Position numbers and translations under genes: made by a program. From a virus (Duplodnaviria; Heunggongvirae; Uroviricota; Caudoviricetes), in the IMG/VR virus record IMGVR_UViG_2529293219_000028: 38,658 nucleotides of DNA; one strand, 5' to 3'. The notes under the pieces are model-generated. The model saw only the letters and a list, made by a program, of their open reading frames with translations. It ran no database searches and had not been told where the DNA came from. Shown here one piece after another: positions 1 to 38,658 of this stretch; the first letter of the stretch is position 1; the number at the start of each line of letters is the position of its first letter.

Positions 1-141
1 ATGGCAACTTTGTTACAACTTCATTTTGCTTTTAATGGCCCATTTGGCGACGCAATGGCTGAGCAGCTTAAACCACTTGCAGAGTCGATTAATCAGGAAC
101 CTGGTTTTCTGTGGAAGGTATGGACAGAAAGTGAAAAGAAT
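1..141 (+). pseudogene. ydhR: 5' fragment of a host ORF (YdhR-like putative monooxygenase) interrupted by the prophage end; the frame runs into phage DNA and stops at 160-162
   Basis: ATG at 1; translation [47 protein letters not shown] followed by NIARRFF and stop; under 60 aa so absent from the ORF track; YdhR identity is recalled from memory, not searched. Confidence 0.5.
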
Positions 142-158
142 ATAGCGCGGCGATTTTT

Positions 159-223
159 TTGATACCGATTTGCATTTCATTTGATACCGCTGAAAAACGC
201 CGATACGCAACTTATTTGATACT
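159..223. repeat. Three copies of TTGATAC(C/T) (159-166, 181-188, 216-223) in the about 125 bp between the host fragment and the mom stop; candidate transposase-binding repeats of the prophage right end
   Basis: Direct reading of the sequence; position matches where Mu carries its R1-R3 sites; the exact terminus could not be pinned (somewhere in 132-162). Confidence 0.4.
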
Positions 224-268
224 AAATCGGCGCTTTTCTTTTGAGTTTTAGAATGAGTTTTTAAGCGC

Positions 269-1006
269 TCATTCACTCTCTTTCAAACCAGTTTTAACTG
301 TTTGTGGTTTTGGGTAAGGCTGGACTTTGAATAGCTTTGTGTTGAGGCGTTTTCTGGCCCTCTTGTTCAGAAACCGGATGTAACGAAACTGTCGGAACTT
401 ATGAACACTGGCTCTGTCAATATTAGCCCTCAGATGTTCACCTCGTTGTCCGCCTCGTTTAATGGCATTCCTGCAAATCTCGTGATACCACTCGCCATCA
501 AGTTCATAGAATATTGATTCATGGCTGCCTACATAATCAAAATTGCTTGCCTGATACACGACACCAAGACAGCCACAACGCTCATCTGCAAACGACTGAA
601 CCCACTGTACCTGCGGATAAAGCTGCCTGATTAGCTTGAGCGCGTAACTGATTGCCCTTGATTCGGAGTTTCTCGGCATACAGTCATGCAGCCATAGCCG
701 GTTAAGCTCCATATATTCTCGGTTCTGCGTACCCGTTACGACGCGTGCACCACTGTTTGGGTTAAGGGCGTAACCCCATTGCATTACGCCAACAAGTTCC
801 CGTTCTGAAAATATGCCCAGATGAAGGTAGGAGTTATTTACGAAACGGTGGCTGTAATGTTTATTGACGATGACCAGTCTGGCCAGCCAGCAACTTATTG
901 TCTCAACCCGCAACTCACGGGAGCCATAACCAACGATATTGTCGTTATAGCGAATAAGTTCAGGCGTGCTGATGATTCGGGATGTGACTTGCTTTCTGTT
1001 CCCCAC
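269..1006 (-). CDS. mom: Mom-like DNA modification protein (true start may be internal)
   Basis: 245 aa ORF at the prophage right end, its 5' end overlapping the 3' end of a Com-like zinc finger ORF, as in Mu com-mom; identity rests on synteny rather than on recognised Mom sequence. Confidence 0.6.
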
Positions 1007-1160
1007 GACAGGATTTCCTTGTGTATGTGGGGTGCTCTGTGGCGCTCGGAGATGTGATTTGATTGAGGGTTTTACAGCGCGGACATTTTACTTCCAGATA
1101 ACTGAAACTGGCCCGTGCCAGTAGCTTATTGCAGTGTCGGCACCGTATGTTTCGATACAT
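960..1160 (-). CDS. com: Com-like zinc-finger translational activator of mom
   Basis: [30 protein letters not shown]... has the C-x2-C-x16-C-x2-C spacing and IRC..C NKLL / CPRC motifs of Mu Com; AGGAGG lies about 9 nt upstream of the ATG at 1160; track ORF 960..1205 trimmed to this Met. Confidence 0.75.
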
Positions 1161-4427: not shown

Positions 4428-4526
4428 AATAATCAGCCTGTTCCTGAATAAACTGAATTATCATATCCACAGACCGATAAACGCCATTTTGCGTTAATTC
4501 AGTAAAGGCCCAACAAAGAGAGCGTC

Positions 4527-5087
4527 TTATTTTTCCGAAACGCTCGCAGGATAATAACGATAAAGGGTTGAAAGGCCGATATCAAAAATAAGTGCCACCT
4601 GTCTTCGACTGACACCCCCGGCCAGTAAACGCCCGACCTGCTCGTATTGTTCCTGCGTGAGACGACGGGGTCTGCCGCCGGTTCGTCCCCTTTCACGGGC
4701 AGCTGCAAGACCAGCCCGTGTCCGTTCGACAATTAATTCACGCTCCATTTCTGCCAGCGCACCCATTATGTGAAAAAAGAAGCGCCCCATGGGGGTTGAC
4801 GTATCAATGTTGTCAGTAAGACTACGAAAATTTATCCCCTGTTGCTGTAATTCATCTGTCAGCGCAACAAGGTGGCGCATACTGCGCCCCAGCCTGTCCA
4901 GTTTCCAGACCATCAGTGTGTCACCGGGTTTTAGTTTCTTCAGTGCCCGCTTCAGTCCCGGCCGCTGTGTCGTTTTACCACTCATTTTATCTTCAAAAAT
5001 CTGCTCACATCCTGCACATTCCAGCGCATTTCTTTGTAAACCTGTGTTCTGGTCATTTGTTGATACGCGTATATAGCCAATCAGCAT
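4527..5087 (-). CDS. gin: Gin/Hin/Cin-family serine DNA invertase
   Basis: MLIGYIRVSTNDQNTGLQRNALECAGCEQIFEDK...MGRFFFHIMGALAEMERELIVERT is near-identical in pattern to Mu Gin; lies 56 bp from the left boundary of the invertible segment. Confidence 0.9.
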   Translation of the reverse strand: MLIGYIRVSTNDQNTGLQRNALECAGCEQIFEDKMSGKTTQRPGLKRALKKLKPGDTLMVWKLDRLGRSMRHLVALTDELQQQGINFRSLTDNIDTSTPMGRFFFHIMGALAEMERELIVERTRAGLAAARERGRTGGRPRRLTQEQYEQVGRLLAGGVSRRQVALIFDIGLSTLYRYYPASVSEK

Positions 5088-5141
5088 GTATTTACCTTCC
5101 TTAAAAAGAGGTGGAAAGGCCTTTTAAAGCAGATATACGGC

Positions 5142-5167
5142 ATCCCTGAAACCTTCGGTTTACGGGA
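5142..5167. other. Candidate gix-like crossover site (left); near-palindrome TCCCTGAAACC-TTCG-GTTTACGGGA
   Basis: Palindromic core AAACC..GGTTT exactly where the inverted-repeat homology begins, just upstream of gin. Confidence 0.55.
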
Positions 5168-5335
5168 TACTGTAAACAGGGCCGCGAATGCCCTGCCATC
5201 GAACGGAGCGGCTGTTGCAGCGAATAAACTCGCCACTCCAAGAAATATTAATGGTGTCCCATTTGACGGAACGCAGGATATAAATATTACATCGGGGATG
5301 ACGCAGTCTGTGGCTGACTCACGTTATGTTCAAAG
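5157..5335. repeat. Left inverted repeat of the invertible tail-fibre segment (about 180 bp, roughly 80% identical to the reverse complement of 6351-6529)
   Basis: Manual alignment; both copies start at GGTTTACGGGA and share runs such as CCAAGAAATATTAATGGTGT and TTTGACGGAACGC. Confidence 0.8.
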
Positions 5336-5513
5336 CATTCGAAGAGGTTCAAGGTCAACGATTGGAATGCAATATAATATTTTTGAGGTTCCTGACGGAT
5401 GCGTACTTACAGGGCTTGATGTCGCTGGTGATGGTAATGCAACGGTAACCGCATATTATCGACCTGTTCAGTTTCTGATAGATGGTTCGTGGAAAACAGC
5501 TTCCAGCGCATAA
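5157..5513 (+). CDS. Alternative tail-fibre C-terminal cassette (S'v-like), startless and currently not joined to the fibre gene
   Basis: Frame is open from 5064 with no in-frame start; encodes ...GLRDTVNRAANALPSNGAAVAANKLATPRNINGVPFDGTQDINITSGMTQS..., paralogous to residues about 205-260 of the minus-strand fibre, then diverges (ORF-track 5298..5513). Confidence 0.7.
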   Translation, partial: GLRDTVNRAANALPSNGAAVAANKLATPRNINGVPFDGTQDINITSGMTQSVADSRYVQSIRRGSRSTIGMQYNIFEVPDGCVLTGLDVAGDGNATVTAYYRPVQFLIDGSWKTASSA

Positions 5514-5592
5514 AAGTGCAGTAGTTCAAAAAACAGATTATCTGAATAAATATATGATGATTTTGTCTTTTCAACAAAAACAAGGTGAAATA

Positions 5593-6114
5593 ATGGAGCT
5601 TATTAACGTAAAACGATATTACCCGGAACACAAACCCTATGGTGAGGATGTTCAGTATTTCCAGAGTGAGGACGGAAGGGATTTTTATGAATCTATCCCG
5701 CTTTTCACAAAGAAATACAAACTCTGTATTTCGCCTGTAACGGGTATTATCTGCTCTGTTGCTGAAGATGTCTCTGCTTTATATCCGGCAGGTTTTACTG
5801 TTGTTGAAGTGGACGAACTGCCGGAAGGTGTGAATATTGACGGTAACTGGCAGTTTTCTGATGGCCTGATATCAAAGGTGCCGGTAAACTGGAAGACGGT
5901 TGCTGAAAAGCGCCGCTCATCGCTGCTCCAGGAAGCCAACGAAACTGTGGATGACTGGAAAACGGAATTAAAACTGGACATGATTAGCGATGAAAATAAA
6001 TTACAGCTGACGCGCTGGATGGCGTATATCCGACAGCTTAAAGAAATGCACTTTAATGATATTGCCAGTGAGGGGCATTACCAGGCGATTCCCTGGCCGG
6101 AAAAACCGGAATAA
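5593..6114 (+). CDS. Tail fibre assembly (chaperone) protein, Mu U/U'-like
   Basis: MELINVKRYYPEHKPYGEDV... with the AAGGTG RBS before the ATG at 5593 chosen as start; ORF-track frame 5482..6114; identity called from position and general Tfa-like character, not a recognised motif. Confidence 0.7.
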   Translation: MELINVKRYYPEHKPYGEDVQYFQSEDGRDFYESIPLFTKKYKLCISPVTGIICSVAEDVSALYPAGFTVVEVDELPEGVNIDGNWQFSDGLISKVPVNWKTVAEKRRSSLLQEANETVDDWKTELKLDMISDENKLQLTRWMAYIRQLKEMHFNDIASEGHYQAIPWPEKPE

Positions 6115-6120
6115 TTCAGA

Positions 6121-6146
6121 GGGTGCATTCAGCACCCTTTTCTGTG
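6121..6146. terminator. Bidirectional hairpin between the convergent fibre and chaperone genes
   Basis: GGGTGC-ATTCA-GCACCC stem-loop followed by TTTTCT. Confidence 0.5.
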
Positions 6147-6148
6147 GT

Positions 6149-7060
6149 TTACACTGAACTTACCGTTCTCCAGGCATTATTAATATAAATCTGAACCGGG
6201 CGATAATAGACCCCACCGATATTGTCCGCAGACCGGGAGCCGGTTTCCTGCACGTTAATTCCGGAAAGCATACAACCGGAAGGTGCGCTGTAATTCCATG
6301 ACATTTCATTGCCTCCGGGTGAATGATAGCTCTGTGCTCCAAGCTGAACATTCTGTACATACCGGCCATCTGCGGTTGACTGCGTCATTCCTGACGTGAT
6401 GTTGATATCCAGCGTTCCGTCAAAAGGAACACCATTAATATTTCTTGGGGTGGCGAGTCTGTTTGCTGCCACGGCGGTTCCACCCGATGGCAGGGCATCA
6501 GCAGCCTTATTTACCGTTTCCCGTAAACCAACGTTATCGATAAAAGCGCCTTTATCCGGAATGTCTGCGCCGTTCTGCTCCCTGCGCAGGTAACGGTTAT
6601 CACCTTCGCTTTTGCTGTAAACATCCAGATTATTACGGGCGGTTCCCGCATTCTCCAGGTCGGCAAGGTTCTGATCCTTCGCCAGAGCATTAACGTCACC
6701 GGGACCAAGACTGTTTTTTGTGGCAAGCGCCCCAAGACCAAGATAACCACGGGCAAGACGCTGGGCTTCCGCACCGGCATCAGCAATTTCTTTCAGGTTG
6801 TTTTTCCGGGAAAAGGCATTCGCAGCGATAATGGCTTTAATGGACAGCGTAAGCTGGTTTAACTGCGCCTTATCCGGCTGAATACTGGCTTCAGCCAGAA
6901 TATTCAGCAGTTCGGCCTGGAGAATATTCAGCCAGTCCTGACCAATCCAGCTGATACCTTTTTGTCCGTCACCTTCGGTAAACCAGGTGGTGGTATTACT
7001 CTGCGCCGGTGCCAGCGCAGGCATATTCGCCACGCCGGAATTATTATCAACATGGAACAT
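6149..7060 (-). CDS. Tail fibre protein (constant part plus the currently expressed variable tip)
   Basis: Start placed at the internal Met at 7060, whose ATG overlaps the upstream gene's stop by 1 nt (track start 7114 would overlap by 55 nt); C-terminal part runs through the right inverted repeat. Confidence 0.8.
   Translation of the reverse strand: MFHVDNNSGVANMPALAPAQSNTTTWFTEGDGQKGISWIGQDWLNILQAELLNILAEASIQPDKAQLNQLTLSIKAIIAANAFSRKNNLKEIADAGAEAQRLARGYLGLGALATKNSLGPGDVNALAKDQNLADLENAGTARNNLDVYSKSEGDNRYLRREQNGADIPDKGAFIDNVGLRETVNKAADALPSGGTAVAANRLATPRNINGVPFDGTLDINITSGMTQSTADGRYVQNVQLGAQSYHSPGGNEMSWNYSAPSGCMLSGINVQETGSRSADNIGGVYYRPVQIYINNAWRTVSSV
6351..6529. repeat. Right inverted repeat of the invertible segment, inside the tail fibre gene
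   Basis: Reverse complement aligns with 5157-5335. Confidence 0.8.
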
Positions 7061-7620
7061 TAAATATTCTCCTCTTCGTGACTGTTTGCATATACGTAAA
7101 TAAACGTCTGCCATGCAGGCTTATAACGGTTCAGAATACATTCCAGCGCACCGCCTTCATAAATACGCAGCGGCGTGAGAATATCATCCAGCACATTCAT
7201 ATTCCGGTAGCCGGTTTCACTGTTAATCGTGACAATACTGACCCACTGTGAATCCGGTGATGGCTGAATATCTATTTCATAACCAAACTCTGCCGCAAAC
7301 CGGATATAAAATTCACGGTTAAGAGAGGGTTTCATCCGGTATTTATTCCCGGCATAACGCTGACGCTCCTGAATGGTTGCGCCGGTCATATCACATTCCG
7401 GTAACCCCAGATAACGCTCCCAGTCTTCCAGCAGCAGACGGGATGAATCAGGAAAACGTTCTGCCAGCATCTGGTTACCGGTCCAGGAAACACGCTCCGT
7501 GGAATGACTGAGGCCCAGGCACAAAGCCGCAAGAACGGATGACGGCCGCTTATCCCATGCCAGCCCGTCAGGCAGCAACTGCAACAGGGCGCGCTGATGC
7601 GGGGTCAGGGTTACAGCCAT
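7060..7620 (-). CDS. Tail/baseplate protein (Mu gp48-like)
   Basis: 186 aa; position between the baseplate J-like gene and the fibre gene. Confidence 0.7.
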   Translation of the reverse strand: MAVTLTPHQRALLQLLPDGLAWDKRPSSVLAALCLGLSHSTERVSWTGNQMLAERFPDSSRLLLEDWERYLGLPECDMTGATIQERQRYAGNKYRMKPSLNREFYIRFAAEFGYEIDIQPSPDSQWVSIVTINSETGYRNMNVLDDILTPLRIYEGGALECILNRYKPAWQTFIYVYANSHEEENI

Positions 7621-17959: not shown

Positions 17960-18354
17960 GCACGGGCCTGTTCCGCTTTGTTACCGGTCTTTTTCCGGGG
18001 AGCATCCTGTCCGGCTTCGGCTTCGGCTTCGGCTTCGGCTTCGGCTTCGGCTTCGGCTTCGGCTTCGGCTTCGGCTAAATCTGTACCGGCCACTGCATGA
18101 ACCACACCCGCCACGCTCCCCGCATCATCAGCAGACGTCTGTAGTATTCGCACAGTGAGGCATGGCTCCTCCTCCAGTCGGGCAAGCTGCTCCGGGGTGA
18201 CCTCAACCTGCTGACGTCCACGCGTGAACAGGAACCCCGCACGACGAAACGCCGAACGACTGCAACGCACTTCTGCCAGCACCGTGACAGAATTGTCACC
18301 ACTGACCTGAAGACCTGAATCATCTGTTGCTGCCACAGTGTGATGTTCATTCAT
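17956..18354 (-). CDS. Hypothetical head-region protein with an internal (Glu-Ala)n tract
   Basis: 132 aa ORF directly downstream of the major head gene; contains about 11 EA dipeptides encoded by the hexanucleotide repeat. Confidence 0.6.
   Translation of the reverse strand: MNEHHTVAATDDSGLQVSGDNSVTVLAEVRCSRSAFRRAGFLFTRGRQQVEVTPEQLARLEEEPCLTVRILQTSADDAGSVAGVVHAVAGTDLAEAEAEAEAEAEAEAEAEAEAGQDAPRKKTGNKAEQARA
18013..18076. repeat. Perfect tandem hexanucleotide repeat (GGCTTC)10 plus a partial unit
   Basis: Direct reading: ggcttc repeated from 18013 to 18072, then ggct. Confidence 0.95.
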
Positions 18355-21119: not shown

Positions 21120-21237
21120 GTTGCCTCCTTAAAACTATCTGATTAAAATAAATACAGGCCGGTGTACTCTTAACTGGTAAAGCGGCATAAACCCTCAGGG
21201 GTCATATGTTTATGCGGGTTCGACCCCCGTCACCGGC

Positions 21238-22563
21238 TTACAATTTACCTTCCAGTAGTTCCAGCTTTCCGCCCTCTATTGCTTTTTCAATATCAAATTT
21301 ATTTACCCGGTAAGCATTAATTACCACATCCAGCTTATCCGGCTGGCGCTTCACACCATAAGGCGCATTGACGGCAATCTTTGCCGTTCCGTCACGGGTT
21401 TCAGTGATGTAAAGCAGGTTCTGATGGACATGATCCCACAGCACGGCATCGGGGGCAGCCAGCATGGCGGGAAGCTGCGCGAAATCCTCCGGCGTCAGGG
21501 CGATACCGTCATTCTGATGTTTCACACTGTCCGCATGGAGCACATTTTTACCGCTCATCGCCAGCAGGCGGGCCGGTGGCGTTCCTGTCCGGCTTTCCAC
21601 TGCCTGCGCAATACTTTCGGTCATAAAGCCCAGCGTGCGGATATCGTGACCACCGCGCCGGGTTTTCATGATATTTTTTGCCCAGATGCGGAACGCCAGC
21701 TGCCGCTCCGGGCTGTTGTTCATCTCCTGAACCACCATTTCCCGTAACGCCGGGCTTTTCACCTCGATCAGTTTACGGATCAGCGCCTGGTCTGTGCCGA
21801 ACGCCGCCGAACCGGGGTTATATGACCAGCCCACATCCGGTGTCATGGTTCTGGTGCCATCTGAATATGTGGTCACCGGCATTTCTCTGACTTCTCCGGT
21901 CTGTTTATCCACGCCAGCCTCAACATTGCGGGTGGAGAGATGATCCTCACCGGATGAAACGGATAACCCCATTGCATCCAGACGGGCCTGAGACAATGGC
22001 CGCACACGGCAGCGGCAGTTCCAGCCATTGGGTGGGTAGTGTGTTTTCCAGAACGGATCATCATAGCGGAATACCAGACCGTTAAGGGTGGAATGCGACG
22101 GGCGGGTACGGCTGTCCATGACCGCCACATACTGCCAGAACGGATGCGTGTCCGTGTTGTTCATCATCTGCGTGTAACGCCCGGCATTGTAAGCCACGCG
22201 GGTGTTCACGTTGTAAATCAGCGCCAGACGGCGGGGACTGCCCAGCTGTACTTCTTCTGCGTTACCGGCGCTGTCCACCACAATCTGCTTCCCCCACCAT
22301 CCCAGCTTTTGCAGGCGGGGTGTCAGTGTGCGGATAAATGCTTTCTGTGAAATCCCCTCATCAATGGCCCGTTGCACTTCCGCCTGTAGTGTGGTCAGTA
22401 CGTCCAGGCGTGCCGCTTTTGCCGCCGTGAACGATCGGGCATGAACATCTGCGTCTGTTTCGAACCAGTTCCAGCTGATATGCGCCCCTTTGGCGCGGAA
22501 GTATGCCACCGCCTCTTTTGAGGGAAGGGTGGCGGCATAACCTAAATCAATCCCCTGTGCCAT
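21238..22563 (-). CDS. Head morphogenesis protein, Mu F (gp30)-like
   Basis: 441 aa with RTRPSH...NGWNCRCR motif typical of the Mu F family. Confidence 0.8.
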   Translation of the reverse strand: MAQGIDLGYAATLPSKEAVAYFRAKGAHISWNWFETDADVHARSFTAAKAARLDVLTTLQAEVQRAIDEGISQKAFIRTLTPRLQKLGWWGKQIVVDSAGNAEEVQLGSPRRLALIYNVNTRVAYNAGRYTQMMNNTDTHPFWQYVAVMDSRTRPSHSTLNGLVFRYDDPFWKTHYPPNGWNCRCRVRPLSQARLDAMGLSVSSGEDHLSTRNVEAGVDKQTGEVREMPVTTYSDGTRTMTPDVGWSYNPGSAAFGTDQALIRKLIEVKSPALREMVVQEMNNSPERQLAFRIWAKNIMKTRRGGHDIRTLGFMTESIAQAVESRTGTPPARLLAMSGKNVLHADSVKHQNDGIALTPEDFAQLPAMLAAPDAVLWDHVHQNLLYITETRDGTAKIAVNAPYGVKRQPDKLDVVINAYRVNKFDIEKAIEGGKLELLEGKL

Positions 22564-34369: not shown

Positions 34370-34597
34370 TTAGCTGACTTGTTTCGCACCAACAGAACGG
34401 CATATTCCGCTGTAAACGTCTGTCGCACCTTCGCGATCAAGTCCGGCAGATATCACCATTCGTGTGCGGTCATTAAATTCAAAAAGTAAATCGCCACATT
34501 CTTTATTTTCGGCCAGTGAAATCACCTTCACGTTATCGAAATTAACCAGGTAAAAGCGTCCGTAAATATCAGGAATATAAAATACCGCCATAATCAC
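34370..34597 (-). CDS. Small early protein in the position of Mu kil
   Basis: 75 aa ORF directly downstream of the B-like gene; assignment by position and size only. Confidence 0.45.
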   Translation of the reverse strand: MIMAVFYIPDIYGRFYLVNFDNVKVISLAENKECGDLLFEFNDRTRMVISAGLDREGATDVYSGICRSVGAKQVS

Positions 34598-35526
34598 ACC
34601 TGTGAGAGTAATTCAGGGTTGGTATAAACCTCTTTAAAGGCCGCATTAATATGTTTTTCTGTCAGCGCCGCACCTTCACCGCTGGCGGTGAGCCACGCCT
34701 GGTTAAGCGTATGTGTCAGAACGCGTAACGCTCCCGGCTTTTCAGCGATAGCCTGCATGACGGCCAGCTCGGCCTCACCACTGATACCCCATGCCCTGGC
34801 AATGGCCAGCACATCCGCCTTTTTGGCCTTGCGAAGTTGTTTTGTACGGGCAAGACGGCTGAACAGGCGCGATAAATCATCAAAGGCGCGGCGTCCACCT
34901 TTAAACAATCCGCGCGGGTTACCAATAAGCACCATCCCGATCCCCGTGGCGTCCTGAATTGCCCGGAGTTGCTCCAGACCGTCAATACCAAGATGATCCG
35001 CCTCATCCACAATCACCAGTCCACGCGTTCCCATCAGGCGACGGCGGATGGCGCGGGATAATGCCCCTTTGTTCGCGCGGGTGTAATCAATCCCCAGCGC
35101 ATCGGCCAGCTCCAGCAGACACTCCGTGACGCTGGAGTGCGCGGGTGACAGGGTGATCATCCAGGTGTTTGGTTGCTCCTGGCAGTAATTACGGGCGGTG
35201 GCCGTTTTACCTACCCCCGGCACGCCCACAATGACGTTAATACAGCCCATCAGGCGAACCGCCTGAAACAGTGCGCGCAGCTCCTGAACTGTCTGCGTTT
35301 CCACAAACTGCGGCGGTTCCGGCAGTGCGCTTTGTTTATTCCAGTTCTCATACCAGGAACGCAGGGAAGCAGCCACAGCGGCGTTATCGCCTTTATATTT
35401 CCCCTTGCGGAAAGCCGATAATGTGCCGTCGGAAATTCCCGCCTCTCTGGCGATGGCATACTGCGTCAGTACGCCGCCATCAATAAGTTCATCAATGGTC
35501 TTGATTACATCGTTAATATCAGTCAT
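34594..35526 (-). CDS. Transposition ATPase, Mu B-like (AAA+)
   Basis: 310 aa; Walker A VGVPGVGKTATARNY; directly downstream of the transposase gene. Confidence 0.85.
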   Translation of the reverse strand: MTDINDVIKTIDELIDGGVLTQYAIAREAGISDGTLSAFRKGKYKGDNAAVAASLRSWYENWNKQSALPEPPQFVETQTVQELRALFQAVRLMGCINVIVGVPGVGKTATARNYCQEQPNTWMITLSPAHSSVTECLLELADALGIDYTRANKGALSRAIRRRLMGTRGLVIVDEADHLGIDGLEQLRAIQDATGIGMVLIGNPRGLFKGGRRAFDDLSRLFSRLARTKQLRKAKKADVLAIARAWGISGEAELAVMQAIAEKPGALRVLTHTLNQAWLTASGEGAALTEKHINAAFKEVYTNPELLSQV

Positions 35527-35596: not shown

Positions 35597-37687
35597 TCAG
35601 GCCAGCGGGTCATTTTCTTTTAATTTCGCTTCGAGCAACTGCAATCCCCGCTGGAAATTGCGCTCGTATTCTTCATCAGGCTCATCATCAATGGCAGGTT
35701 GCTGAACGGCCACCGTATTACCTACCGGGCGATAGATGTTTTCCAGCCAGGGCTCCTGCGGCTTGTGCTCCAGCACGTTGACAACCTCATCCTCGGCATC
35801 ACGGATTTTTTCCTCTGCGCGTTTACGCATGCCTTTAAGGCGTTGCTGCTGTTTGTAGTATTCCGCGCTAACCGGGAAGGCTTCGCGTTTATTACCGTCC
35901 CATACCGCCTCGCAAATCACGCTGCCATCCAGGCGACGTACGGTAATTCGTTCGGCATCATGAATGTCATAGCTGATAAGCACCTTGCGGCCATGCTCAT
36001 CACGCAGCTCGGGCGCGTAGTAAATATTATTCAGCCAGCGTATTTCACAGCGTCTTACAGGGCGTTCCACCATCGGCCGGAACATGTCCCGCAATTCCAC
36101 ATCGGACAGCCATTCAATTTCCGTGTCCTCTTCCGCCAGGCGTTTTTTTCTGAACTCCGCCGGGCTGTAATGCTTGCCGTTCGGCTTCACCGGTAATTCA
36201 TCGTGCGGCCGGTTGTTGTACCACTCAACACCATCACGAATGGCATCAATCAGTTCAGACCAGGACGGTAAATCACGCATCGCTGACTGCTGCCGGGCGT
36301 TCAGCCGTTTGCCCTGTTGCAGGGCAGTAAATGCCGAGCGTAAATCGCGGTTGGTTTTGCGTAACGTCTCGCGATCTGCACCTTTCCCGAAATAGGTGCG
36401 GTATTTACGGGCTATGCGCATCGGTAATGTGCGGTTAAGCCGTTCGATAATGCCTCGTCCCTGCGGATTACCGGCAATCCCGGTCGGGTGATTAATCCCC
36501 AGTCGCGGCAGTATCCCCACAACCTCCTTATCCAGGATGTCGGCGGTTTCCCCGGAGCCGTTATCCGAGTAATACAGAAACGGTTTGCCGTGATGGCGAA
36601 TGCCGTGCTGTATGGCACCGGCTACGGCGAAAACATTTTCAGCCAGGTCAAGGCTCCAGCCCACCACAAAGCGCGTGCCACCGTCGATAACAAAGGTCAC
36701 TTCCGGTGCAAATGGCCGACCGTGAACCGGGTGTGCGCATTTCAGCTTCATGCCGTGACCGTCACCAATCCAGACATAATTCACCGGCATTCTGGACCAG
36801 TCGCGGCGCGTGAATCCCTCAAGCTGGCGGTATTCACTGCCGGTCACCCGGCCTTTTTGTTTCACCACTTCCGGCAGTTTCTTCATTGCGCGGCGAATGG
36901 TGTCATAAGACGGCATGATATCGAGCATATAAGGCTCATCAGCGTGCCGGTGCTGCCATTCAGCGACAAAATCCTCGTAAGCCTCGGTCATTGGTCGGCC
37001 GTTTGACTGGCGATACTGCGCCAGAAATTCGGGCAGCCAGTTAATATCTTCGGCTTTTATTTCCTGGCGTTTACCCGGTGCCAGTAAAAGCAGGCGTTCA
37101 GCGGCGTTCTGTGCCTTGTTAAAGGCCGCAATCCATCGCTTCAGCGTGATTTCACTCAACGCACGGCTGTTTCCCTTTTTGGCGTTCGCCGTCTCAACCA
37201 TTGCCACAATGCGCTCGTCCAGCTGTGAACGTGCCAGGTTGTCAACGATAAACCGGATAGCCTTCGCGCAGCTGAAACCGGGTTGTTGCGCGACTTTCAT
37301 CACTTCGCTGACGATCGCGATTCGTGCATCAGCCACCTGGCGCTGGTTTTCAGTCAGGGCATTGAGGCGTTCGACCATCAGTTGTGGTGATCCGCGATAT
37401 GCCTCCACCGCATCAACCACGTCAGATGAGCGTCTGGCCTTTGTCACCACCGGAGCCGGTGATTCATCGGCTTTTTGCGTCATCAGTTGCAGGGCATAAC
37501 GTTCACGTAATGCCTGCTGCGTCACTTCAGGTAAACAGTCGATGCTGTATTCAGTTGCTTTAGAGCCTGAGCGACGACGGGAACAACAGCTTTTCCCTTG
37601 TACGTAACGTTGTAATGCCTGGCGAATACCTTTTGTTGTAGCAGGCATTCCGGGCGCGCCAATCAGTTCTTTTGCAATGACATACAT
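35597..37687 (-). CDS. DDE transposase, Mu A-like
   Basis: 696 aa; catalytic-core motifs WIGDGHGMKLKCAHPVHGRPF and LYYSDNGSGE; follows ner with start/stop overlap. Confidence 0.9.
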   Translation of the reverse strand: MYVIAKELIGAPGMPATTKGIRQALQRYVQGKSCCSRRRSGSKATEYSIDCLPEVTQQALRERYALQLMTQKADESPAPVVTKARRSSDVVDAVEAYRGSPQLMVERLNALTENQRQVADARIAIVSEVMKVAQQPGFSCAKAIRFIVDNLARSQLDERIVAMVETANAKKGNSRALSEITLKRWIAAFNKAQNAAERLLLLAPGKRQEIKAEDINWLPEFLAQYRQSNGRPMTEAYEDFVAEWQHRHADEPYMLDIMPSYDTIRRAMKKLPEVVKQKGRVTGSEYRQLEGFTRRDWSRMPVNYVWIGDGHGMKLKCAHPVHGRPFAPEVTFVIDGGTRFVVGWSLDLAENVFAVAGAIQHGIRHHGKPFLYYSDNGSGETADILDKEVVGILPRLGINHPTGIAGNPQGRGIIERLNRTLPMRIARKYRTYFGKGADRETLRKTNRDLRSAFTALQQGKRLNARQQSAMRDLPSWSELIDAIRDGVEWYNNRPHDELPVKPNGKHYSPAEFRKKRLAEEDTEIEWLSDVELRDMFRPMVERPVRRCEIRWLNNIYYAPELRDEHGRKVLISYDIHDAERITVRRLDGSVICEAVWDGNKREAFPVSAEYYKQQQRLKGMRKRAEEKIRDAEDEVVNVLEHKPQEPWLENIYRPVGNTVAVQQPAIDDEPDEEYERNFQRGLQLLEAKLKENDPLA

Positions 37688-37688
37688 A

Positions 37689-37937
37689 TCATGACGCCTT
37701 TCTCATATAGCTCTTAACCTGGTATCTACTGGGCCAGATTTCTTCAGGCGATACCCCAAGAGCATCAGCAATTATTTGCTGATACGGTCGGCAAGGAGTA
37801 CGTAATACGCTTTTCAGCGAATCCCTGCTGTAACCAGCCTTTAAAGATAAAGAGCGCAGTGATAAGCCAGCCATGTGTAAGCGCGCCTTGATGATTTCAG
37901 GCGGCCAATCGTGATCTGAAACTTCTCTTCTACTCAT
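37689..37937 (-). CDS. ner: Ner-like DNA-binding regulator
   Basis: 82 aa; ...QQIIADALGVSPEEIWPSRY resembles Mu Ner; divergent from the repressor gene. Confidence 0.8.
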   Translation of the reverse strand: MSRREVSDHDWPPEIIKARLHMAGLSLRSLSLKAGYSRDSLKSVLRTPCRPYQQIIADALGVSPEEIWPSRYQVKSYMRKAS

Positions 37938-38127: not shown

Positions 38128-38658
38128 ATGTCGCAGGGAAAAGAACCTGTTATTGAACGTATTGGAATGCTTACAAAGCGCTACCCTTCAAGAAGTGCAG
38201 CTGCCAGAGCGTGGGGAATCAATATCAACACATTAAACAGCTATTTCAAGGGAGGACAAACACAACCAGCCCCCAGAGAAAGTATCCTTATACGAATTTC
38301 TGAAAGTGAAGGAGTTAGTCTTGAGTGGCTTAAAGAGGGCAAGGGTGAATCACCAAACGATGTTGGTATTTGTGGTAATTTTGGTTGTTCTGGTGATAAG
38401 GGAGATCAACTTACACAGATGCTTTCATTCCTTACGAAAGACGAACGAGAACAGTTAACCAATCTCCTTGCTCGCAAAGGTGTAGAGACGGTTCTGACAC
38501 TGCTGGATAAAGAAAACCAGGATTTATTACAACTAGAAGGCAGGAAGCGCCTGGCTGCGTTGATGATTGTAGATATGCCAGACGATTGCGTCAGAGAGAT
38601 TTTGGAAAAAACCGAGACAAGTAGGCAATCAAATCCGGTAGAATCTAAAGCGGGTTAG
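38128..38658 (+). CDS. Mu c-like repressor
   Basis: Start at MSQGKEPV (Met 26 of ORF-track 38053..38658) with AAGAGG RBS; called by position, divergent from ner at the prophage left arm; stop codon is the last 3 nt of the window. Confidence 0.75.
   Translation: MSQGKEPVIERIGMLTKRYPSRSAAARAWGININTLNSYFKGGQTQPAPRESILIRISESEGVSLEWLKEGKGESPNDVGICGNFGCSGDKGDQLTQMLSFLTKDEREQLTNLLARKGVETVLTLLDKENQDLLQLEGRKRLAALMIVDMPDDCVREILEKTETSRQSNPVESKAG

Follow-up and report, generated by a model that had tools for sequence, protein, structure and literature searches.

The ydhR gene of an Escherichia coli O157:H7 strain is split by the right end of an Sp18-type Mu-like prophage flanked by a 4-bp target duplication

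The window analysed here, the whole stretch of 38,658 nucleotides, opens with a reading frame that begins as a host protein and ends as something else. This raises the questions of where exactly host DNA gives way to phage DNA, by what kind of event the phage came to lie there, and what role can be assigned to the repeated motifs that follow the junction. The frame occupies positions 1–162 on the plus strand and encodes 53 amino acids, of which the first 47 are identical to residues 1–47 of E. coli YdhR and the last six (IARRFF) are encoded by the phage, with the stop codon at 160–162. It matches the Pfam profile for ydhR (PF08803) with E=1.4e-16 over profile positions 1–44 of 96 only; the full-length domain of about 96 positions is absent from this frame, and residues 48–101 are encoded 38.8 kb away. 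The original prediction had read the frame as 47 YdhR-like residues running into unrelated sequence, and the list of open reading frames, the alignment with intact YdhR, and the Pfam profile all bear this out. At the nucleotide level, window positions 1–140 (plus strand; codons 1–46 and two nucleotides of codon 47) are identical to nucleotides 1–140 of the intact ydhR of strain 2017C-4109. Mismatches begin at 141, and 26 of them fall within 141–170 when this segment is set against the continuation of the intact gene, which thus stops matching at the phage end. Codon 47 is completed by the phage base T141 as AAT where the host has AAC, both encoding Asn. Aligning the window with the uninterrupted locus therefore places the junction at 140/141, inside the interval 132–162 that had been left unresolved by eye. 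The proposed match of positions 1–141 to a host gene holds, exactly so for 1–140, and the intact gene does not run on into 142–268.

The same alignment locates the missing 3′ part of ydhR (from nucleotide 136 or 137 to 306) directly against the other, left, end of the prophage, approximately 38.8 kb off and just outside the window. Host DNA restarts about 250 nt beyond the window end, where ...CACCTGGTTAC is followed by AAGAACCACG..., the latter being ydhR from nucleotide 136 onward. The PGAP annotation carries two ydhR pseudogene fragments, one at window 1–141, labelled as a YdhR family protein that is incomplete and missing its C-terminus, and one past the far prophage end, next to ydhS. The latter, C-terminal fragment (NZ_CP038302.1, 2429579–2429788) intrudes about 40 nt into the left end of the phage. 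Position 1 is preceded by two tRNA-Val genes and ydhQ, the normal neighbourhood of ydhR. Across 5,426 complete E. coli genomes, a search with window positions 1–400 returned a full-length match in one alone, that of E. coli O157:H7 SS TX 313-1 (NZ_CP038302.1), and at a single place in it; over all 38,658 nt, the sole difference from that genome is one extra hexanucleotide repeat unit in the window. With 140 nt of its 5′ part on one side and the 3′ remainder separated from it by 38.8 kb, ydhR would be inactivated. Intact YdhR is a single-domain protein of 101 amino acids (PDB 1WD6, 2ASY, and 2HIQ, with structures over 101 residues), and from its truncation it can safely be inferred that YdhR function would be lost in the strain carrying this insertion. 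The host genome is public, both ydhR fragments in it were already flagged as pseudogenes, and a prophage–host junction of this kind is in itself ordinary.

The element that interrupts ydhR is an Sp18-type Mu-like transposable prophage and not a site-specific one. The last gene before its right end is mom, for DNA adenine modification (269–1006, minus strand; Pfam Mom, E=4e-77; “protein mom” in PGAP), whose stop codon at 269–271 bounds the stretch of about 100 bp as had been proposed. It is accompanied by com, the translational activator of mom (960–1160, minus strand; Pfam Zn_ribbon_Com, E=1.9e-12; Com family in PGAP). Toward the other end of the window, all on the minus strand, are a MuB-like AAA+ target-DNA activator (34594–35526; Pfam Phage-MuB_C, E=2.5e-25, and AAA_22), a transposase of 696 amino acids (35597–37687; Pfam Mu-transpos_C, E=1.5e-17, and HTH_Tnp_Mu_1, E=1.9e-6), and a Ner-like HTH regulator (37689–37937; Pfam HTH_35, E=2.5e-19). 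The last gene in the window, at 38128–38658 on the plus strand, is both a listed open reading frame and a PGAP CDS; it has no significant Pfam match and is a putative repressor, c-like by position, on the strength of synteny with Mu. The transposase is a distant member of the MuA family. It is 22% identical to MuA (E=5e-11), its residues 363–426 form an integrase-like DDE core, and against the MuA chains of the PDB it reaches only E=0.03–0.1, with retroviral integrase cores matching about equally well by sequence. Membership holds at the level of the family (Pfam Mu-transpos_C), whereas a close relationship to MuA was not found. It is predicted to be the protein that would be expected to bind the repeats at the prophage ends.

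Across the whole prophage, PGAP lists a complete complement of head and tail genes of the Mu-like type. At approximately 4500–7500, an invertase-type “recombinase family protein” gene, encoding the sole recombinase of the element besides the transposition genes, lies beside oppositely oriented tail-fibre and tail-fibre-assembly genes, and the one small open reading frame that PGAP records as frameshifted in the ydhR copy is found there. This part of the window would be an invertible segment for host range, served by a recombinase of the Gin/Hin type, as has been noted for Sp18 (PMC2669165). At 18012–18076, a minus-strand gene for an “HI1506-related protein” contains a perfect tandem repeat of a hexanucleotide (CGGCTT × 10.8). 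The length of this gene ranges from 354 to 435 nt in the prophage copies of other strains, and the repeat has the appearance of an in-frame, hypervariable tract. A “tRNA-OTHER” feature is placed by PGAP at about 21158–21238 (NZ_CP038302.1, 2447419–2447499), in the interval that separates the genes for head morphogenesis and virion morphogenesis, and is also annotated in several other copies; ARAGORN and Rfam (at gathering thresholds), run on the whole window, gave no tRNA or Rfam match.

Where the phage ends can be read from its other insertions. We compared copies in complete E. coli genomes, IMG/VR contigs, two Stx-phage records (LC727881.1 and LC727895.1), and Sp18 of E. coli Sakai. Across 232 genomes there are 284 places with this right end. 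The genes concerned are unrelated, and the end is seen even within other prophages. All 22 different right flanks diverge exactly upstream of TATAGCG; every one of the E. coli matches listed, from the 232 genomes, begins at 141; and similarity to the ends of related Yersinia phages likewise begins at that base. No right-end variants were found among the copies scanned. On the left, all 17 flanks from an exact-match scan carry the final A of ...GGTTACA, and a looser left-end pattern added four copies ending in TTATA, such that the base following GGTTAC, or GGTTAT in those four, is A in 21 of 21 junctions whatever the host sequence. The four are IMG/VR copies whose left terminus reads ...GGTTATA, a natural CA/TA polymorphism at an end whose right-hand counterpart is always TA: the terminal dinucleotide on the right is TA in all 22 copies and the Yersinia relatives, and on the left CA in 17 and TA in four. 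When both junctions of an insertion could be paired, a perfect 4-bp repeat was found in all 12 independent cases, the ydhR locus included (AGAA). A fifth base agrees in three of the 12, about chance level, and the host base following the left-side copy is never T, the base with which the right end begins. The IMG/VR flanks, paired by genome identifier, contributed two same-genome pairs and one cross-genome pair with related identifiers; other same-genome combinations of IMG/VR flanks went unmatched, presumably because there are several prophages per genome. Given the invariant A at the left junctions and the 4-bp repeat throughout, the termini are TATAGCG...GGTTACA. In canonical Mu orientation, the same sequence comparison defines the element as 5′-TGTAACC...CGCTATA-3′. 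Its first base is window position 141 and its last lies 250 nt past the window end, at the window equivalent of 38908. The right end (attR) is thus the non-coding stretch 141–268 (plus strand), with T141 as the terminal base and the transferred strand ending ...CGCTATA-3′ on the minus strand.

The ydhR locus alone would not have led to this reading. It shows a 5-bp overlap, AAGAA (136–140), which is formally ambiguous between a duplication of 4 bp (AGAA) and one of 5 bp (AAGAA), and 4 bp was chosen only because of the comparison with other insertions. The right copy of AGAA lies at 137–140; the second is outside the window, directly after the left terminus, at NZ_CP038302.1 2429748–2429745. 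By this comparison of sequences, the extra A of AAGAA is the phage's own left-terminal base. A 5-bp duplication, which the original prediction had expected and which was also our initial reading of the junction, was dropped on comparing other insertions: in Sp18-type phages the duplication is 4 bp in 12 of 12 pairs, and the fifth matching base at ydhR is the terminal A of the phage. The depositors of LC727881.1 and LC727895.1 annotate the same boundaries and a 4-bp repeat_region, described as a duplication due to insertion of Mu. As a control, a true Mu prophage in E. coli W, read by the same method, gave TG...CA termini and a 5-bp GCCGC repeat; it counts as one independent junction pair, as the Mu prophages of E. 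coli W and B-766 share the same insertion. A target consensus, NGAA, in the first six insertions was a selection artefact, these being the best megablast hits to a query that included the ydhR locus's own flank, and the unbiased IMG/VR flanks show no NGAA-like consensus.

Just inside the right end, three copies of TTGATAC(C/T) had been predicted at spacings of 22 and 35, and their coordinates are confirmed: TTGATACC at 159–166 and 181–188, and TTGATACT at 216–223, all on the plus strand. Slightly extended, the cores are R1 (TTTGATACC, 158–166), R2 (TTTGATACC, 180–188, 22 nt after R1), and R3 (TTTGATACT, 215–223, 35 nt after R2 and in the same orientation), all putative transposase-binding sites of the type TTTGATAC(C/T). 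On both strands of the window, TTGATACY is matched five times against 1.58 expected, and three of the five matches fall within 65 nt; for the 128 nt of 141–268, about 0.005 would be expected from the window-wide rate. The left end holds three cores as well, within 155 nt and all facing inward, a number reached in none of 200 shuffles. Measured from the termini, the cores lie at offsets 18, 40, and 75 on the right and 18, 113, and 165 on the left; with the terminal A counted, the first TTTGATAC core is 18 nt from both termini. The repeats sit where sites for a Mu-type transposase had been anticipated, and the arrangement is mirrored at the left end. Between the two ends, a k-mer comparison also picked out a shared 13-nt sequence, ATGAGCGCTTAAA, at 260–272 on the minus strand and at left-end offset 95–107, in the opposite orientation relative to the terminus. 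Chance alone would give about 0.002 such matches between two stretches of 260 nt. The right-end copy shares bases with the mom stop codon and with a hairpin at 251–274, the only feature to rise above shuffles in a promoter and terminator scan of positions 1–1400; the right-end variant of LC727881 does not conserve this 13-nt sequence.

More distant relatives show which parts of the ends are kept. The Yersinia phages vB_YpM_5/6 and vB_YpM_Tongde (Muvirus in GenBank taxonomy) have transposases that are 79% and 56% identical, respectively, to the one in the window. From the terminal TA onward, their right ends can be aligned gap-free across the three cores; R1 is invariant, R2 and its spacing are kept in Tongde and vB_YpM_5, R3 is conserved, and the 22/35 spacing is the same, whereas the spacers diverge. 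The left end of these phages has three cores as well, L1 keeping its offset; the L1–L2–L3 distances, however, are 104/42 nt versus 95/52 nt, with indels between the cores, and the left terminus appears to be TA. This is the pattern of conservation expected for protein-binding sites, and the TTGATAC(C/T) copies are very probably sites bound by the transposase. The Tongde record (MT591577.1) contains about 520 nt of DNA from the Yersinia glyS region at its right end and IS-type genes (approximately 1.5–2 kb) beyond its left end. As one flank belongs to the glyS region and the other to an IS-type gene, with no relationship between them, the “complete genome” includes packaged or mis-assembled host DNA in addition to phage sequence, and it is uninformative on the length of the duplication.

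Three other readings of the locus deserve to be weighed. That ydhR, beside two tRNA-Val genes, might be the dedicated attachment site of an integrase-type prophage is suggested by the insertion lying approximately 100–260 nt downstream of those genes, tRNA genes being common attachment sites for integrating elements. The phage occupies ydhR in a single genome of 5,426, whereas its end recurs at 284 places, and the diversity of insertion sites together with the uniqueness of the ydhR insertion excludes site-specific integration for practical purposes; moreover, the insertions share no att core, the sole recombinase is of the invertase type and near the tail-fibre genes, and a MuA/MuB pair is present. 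A classical Mu geometry, with ends TATAGCG...GGTTAC and a 5-bp duplication AAGAA, is suggested by AAGAA flanking the prophage on both sides at ydhR, by the stagger of 5 bp in target cleavage by Mu (PMC3562280), and by the Sakai genome record, which draws the boundaries of Sp18 as for a 5-bp repeat. We nevertheless regard it as very improbable. The A that it would assign to the host is present at every left junction irrespective of host sequence, the host base opposite that A is not A in nine of the 12 pairs, the two termini are equidistant from their first TTTGATAC core only when it is included, and the depositors of LC727881 and LC727895 mark 4 bp.

The remaining alternative leaves the 4-bp geometry in place and concerns the repeats, which might be chance AT-rich repeats, part of a mom terminator, sites for a host factor such as IHF, or sites for the repressor or Ner. 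It draws on the fact that binding to the cores is deduced from sequence, that the region follows the mom stop with its hairpin at 251–274, and that the cores look unlike the consensus used here for MuA sites. That consensus, applied as a regular expression, is imperfect, finding in Mu itself only L2, L3, and the inverted R3; on the right end studied here, it matches R2 only, with five mismatches, and there is no nucleotide similarity to the ends of Mu. Chance is difficult to reconcile with three matches where some 0.005 are expected, and a function tied to mom with a left end that has no mom and still holds three inward cores, the first at the identical offset. The cores and their spacing are invariant across transposases of 56–79% identity while adjacent bases change, and the closeness of the R sites, with L1 far from L2–L3, parallels the non-equivalent ends of Mu (PMC3562280). 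We therefore consider it improbable, if somewhat less so than a 5-bp duplication, that the repeats serve something other than the transposase.

The preferred reading, which we hold with high confidence as a full explanation including the putative transposase sites and the 4-bp stagger, is that a 38.8-kb Sp18-type Mu-like transposable prophage was inserted into codon 47 of ydhR by DDE transposition, and that its right end, the one next to mom, begins at window position 141. By analogy with Mu, the MuA-family transposase (35597–37687), aided by the MuB-like ATPase, would most likely bind R1–R3 at offsets 18, 40, and 75, and likewise the three matching, inward-facing sites of the TTTGATAC(C/T) type at the left end (offsets 18, 113, and 165). 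Its protomers would synapse both prophage ends and expose the 3′-OH of a terminal A at each, ...CGCTATA-3′ on the right and ...GGTTACA-3′ on the left. These ends would then be joined to target phosphates staggered by 4 bp, and gap repair by the host would leave AGAA duplicated at 137–140 and after the left end. The transposase being only 22% identical to MuA, the analogy with Mu is weaker as a guide to mechanism than the name “Mu-like” suggests, and with so distant a transposase it would not be surprising for site sequence, terminal dinucleotide, and stagger to differ from those of Mu. Literature searches found no binding or transposition experiment on the ends of Sp18-type phages.

The comparison with Mu itself shows both the resemblance and its limits. 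Each end of Mu holds three MuA sites, non-equivalent in spacing and orientation, and in vitro Mu needs no more of its right end for transposition than a 50-bp piece that contains R1 and R2 (PMC3562280, PMC3362531). The ydhR prophage is similar in having mom and com as the genes nearest the right end, with those for the repressor, Ner, A, and B at the left; in three repeated sites per end, tight on the right and with L1 distant from L2/L3, R1 and R2 falling within the first 50 bp; and in near-random target choice with a short duplication. The unequal layout of three sites per end that characterizes Mu sensu stricto is thus found here too, in a comparison of arrangement alone. The site sequence, with its TTTGATAC core, is unrelated to that of Mu, however, and the right-hand cores all point in the same direction, whereas in the right end of Mu, as read with this consensus, the third site is inverted. 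For Mu and HIV alike, CA is described as the conserved terminus (PMC3562280). The 5′-TG...CA-3′ termini of Mu sensu stricto are not found at the ydhR prophage, where the right end is ...CGCTATA-3′ and the left ends in CA; the right terminus is TA instead of CA and the duplication 4 bp instead of 5, in addition to the low identity of the transposase to MuA. It is likely, in our judgement, that the MuA-family clade comprising Sp18 and the Yersinia YpM phages departs from Mu in two linked respects, using a 4-bp stagger and accepting TA as well as CA at a terminus.

The Sp18 phage family is itself well known (PMC2669165, PMC7430833, PMC10132054). Sp18 of E. coli O157:H7 Sakai, a Mu-like prophage inserted in sorM (PMC7430833), was reported as predicted to be intact and as efficiently packaged (PMC2669165). 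Its right end is 100% identical to window 141–400 (NC_002695.2), and it shares with the ydhR prophage the termini TGTAACC...CGCTATA, a 4-bp duplication (TAAA in Sakai), the gene order, and the size (38,755 versus 38,768 bp). They differ in the gene that received them, sorM versus ydhR, and in small internal features such as the length of the hexanucleotide repeat. The Sakai record delimits “prophage Sp18” at 5040971–5079729, omitting the terminal T on the left and adding five host bases on the right; from the termini given above, we place it at 5040970–5079724. Mu-like phages within Stx phages of CC119 STEC (LC727881.1 and LC727895.1; PMC10132054) have an annotated start TATAGCG, an annotated end GGTTACA, 4-bp flanks, and a transposase that is 99% identical. 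Unlike the ydhR copy, they sit in other prophages and not in a chromosomal gene, and identity in their right non-coding region is 93% for the first 101 nt, after which the sequences are unrelated. Literature searches returned nothing on the duplication length or end sites of Sp18-type phages, one paper on Sp18 and sRNA being irrelevant to the ends, and no published statement of a 4-bp stagger, a TA terminus, or TTTGATAC end sites for these phages. GenBank features already carry both the exact ends and the 4-bp duplication, and what is added here consists otherwise of minor refinements of a known kind of element.

For the strain in question, the analysis fixes the prophage boundaries in the genome NZ_CP038302.1, with little import beyond correct annotation, and identifies ydhR as a casualty of transposition and not an attachment site. 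For Sp18-type prophages, it provides a delimiting rule, TATAGCG...GGTTA(C/T)A with 4-bp flanks, which locates the ends more accurately than the Sakai reference and the ydhR pseudogene fragment of PGAP do. To specialists in transposition, a stagger of 4 bp and a TA terminus are of modest curiosity value. The six putative TTTGATAC sites define minimal ends from which a mini-Sp18 element could be built, and if the features described here hold biochemically, the clade of Sp18 and the Yersinia YpM phages would be a natural system, close to Mu, for the study of stagger length and terminal-base specificity in DDE transpososomes.
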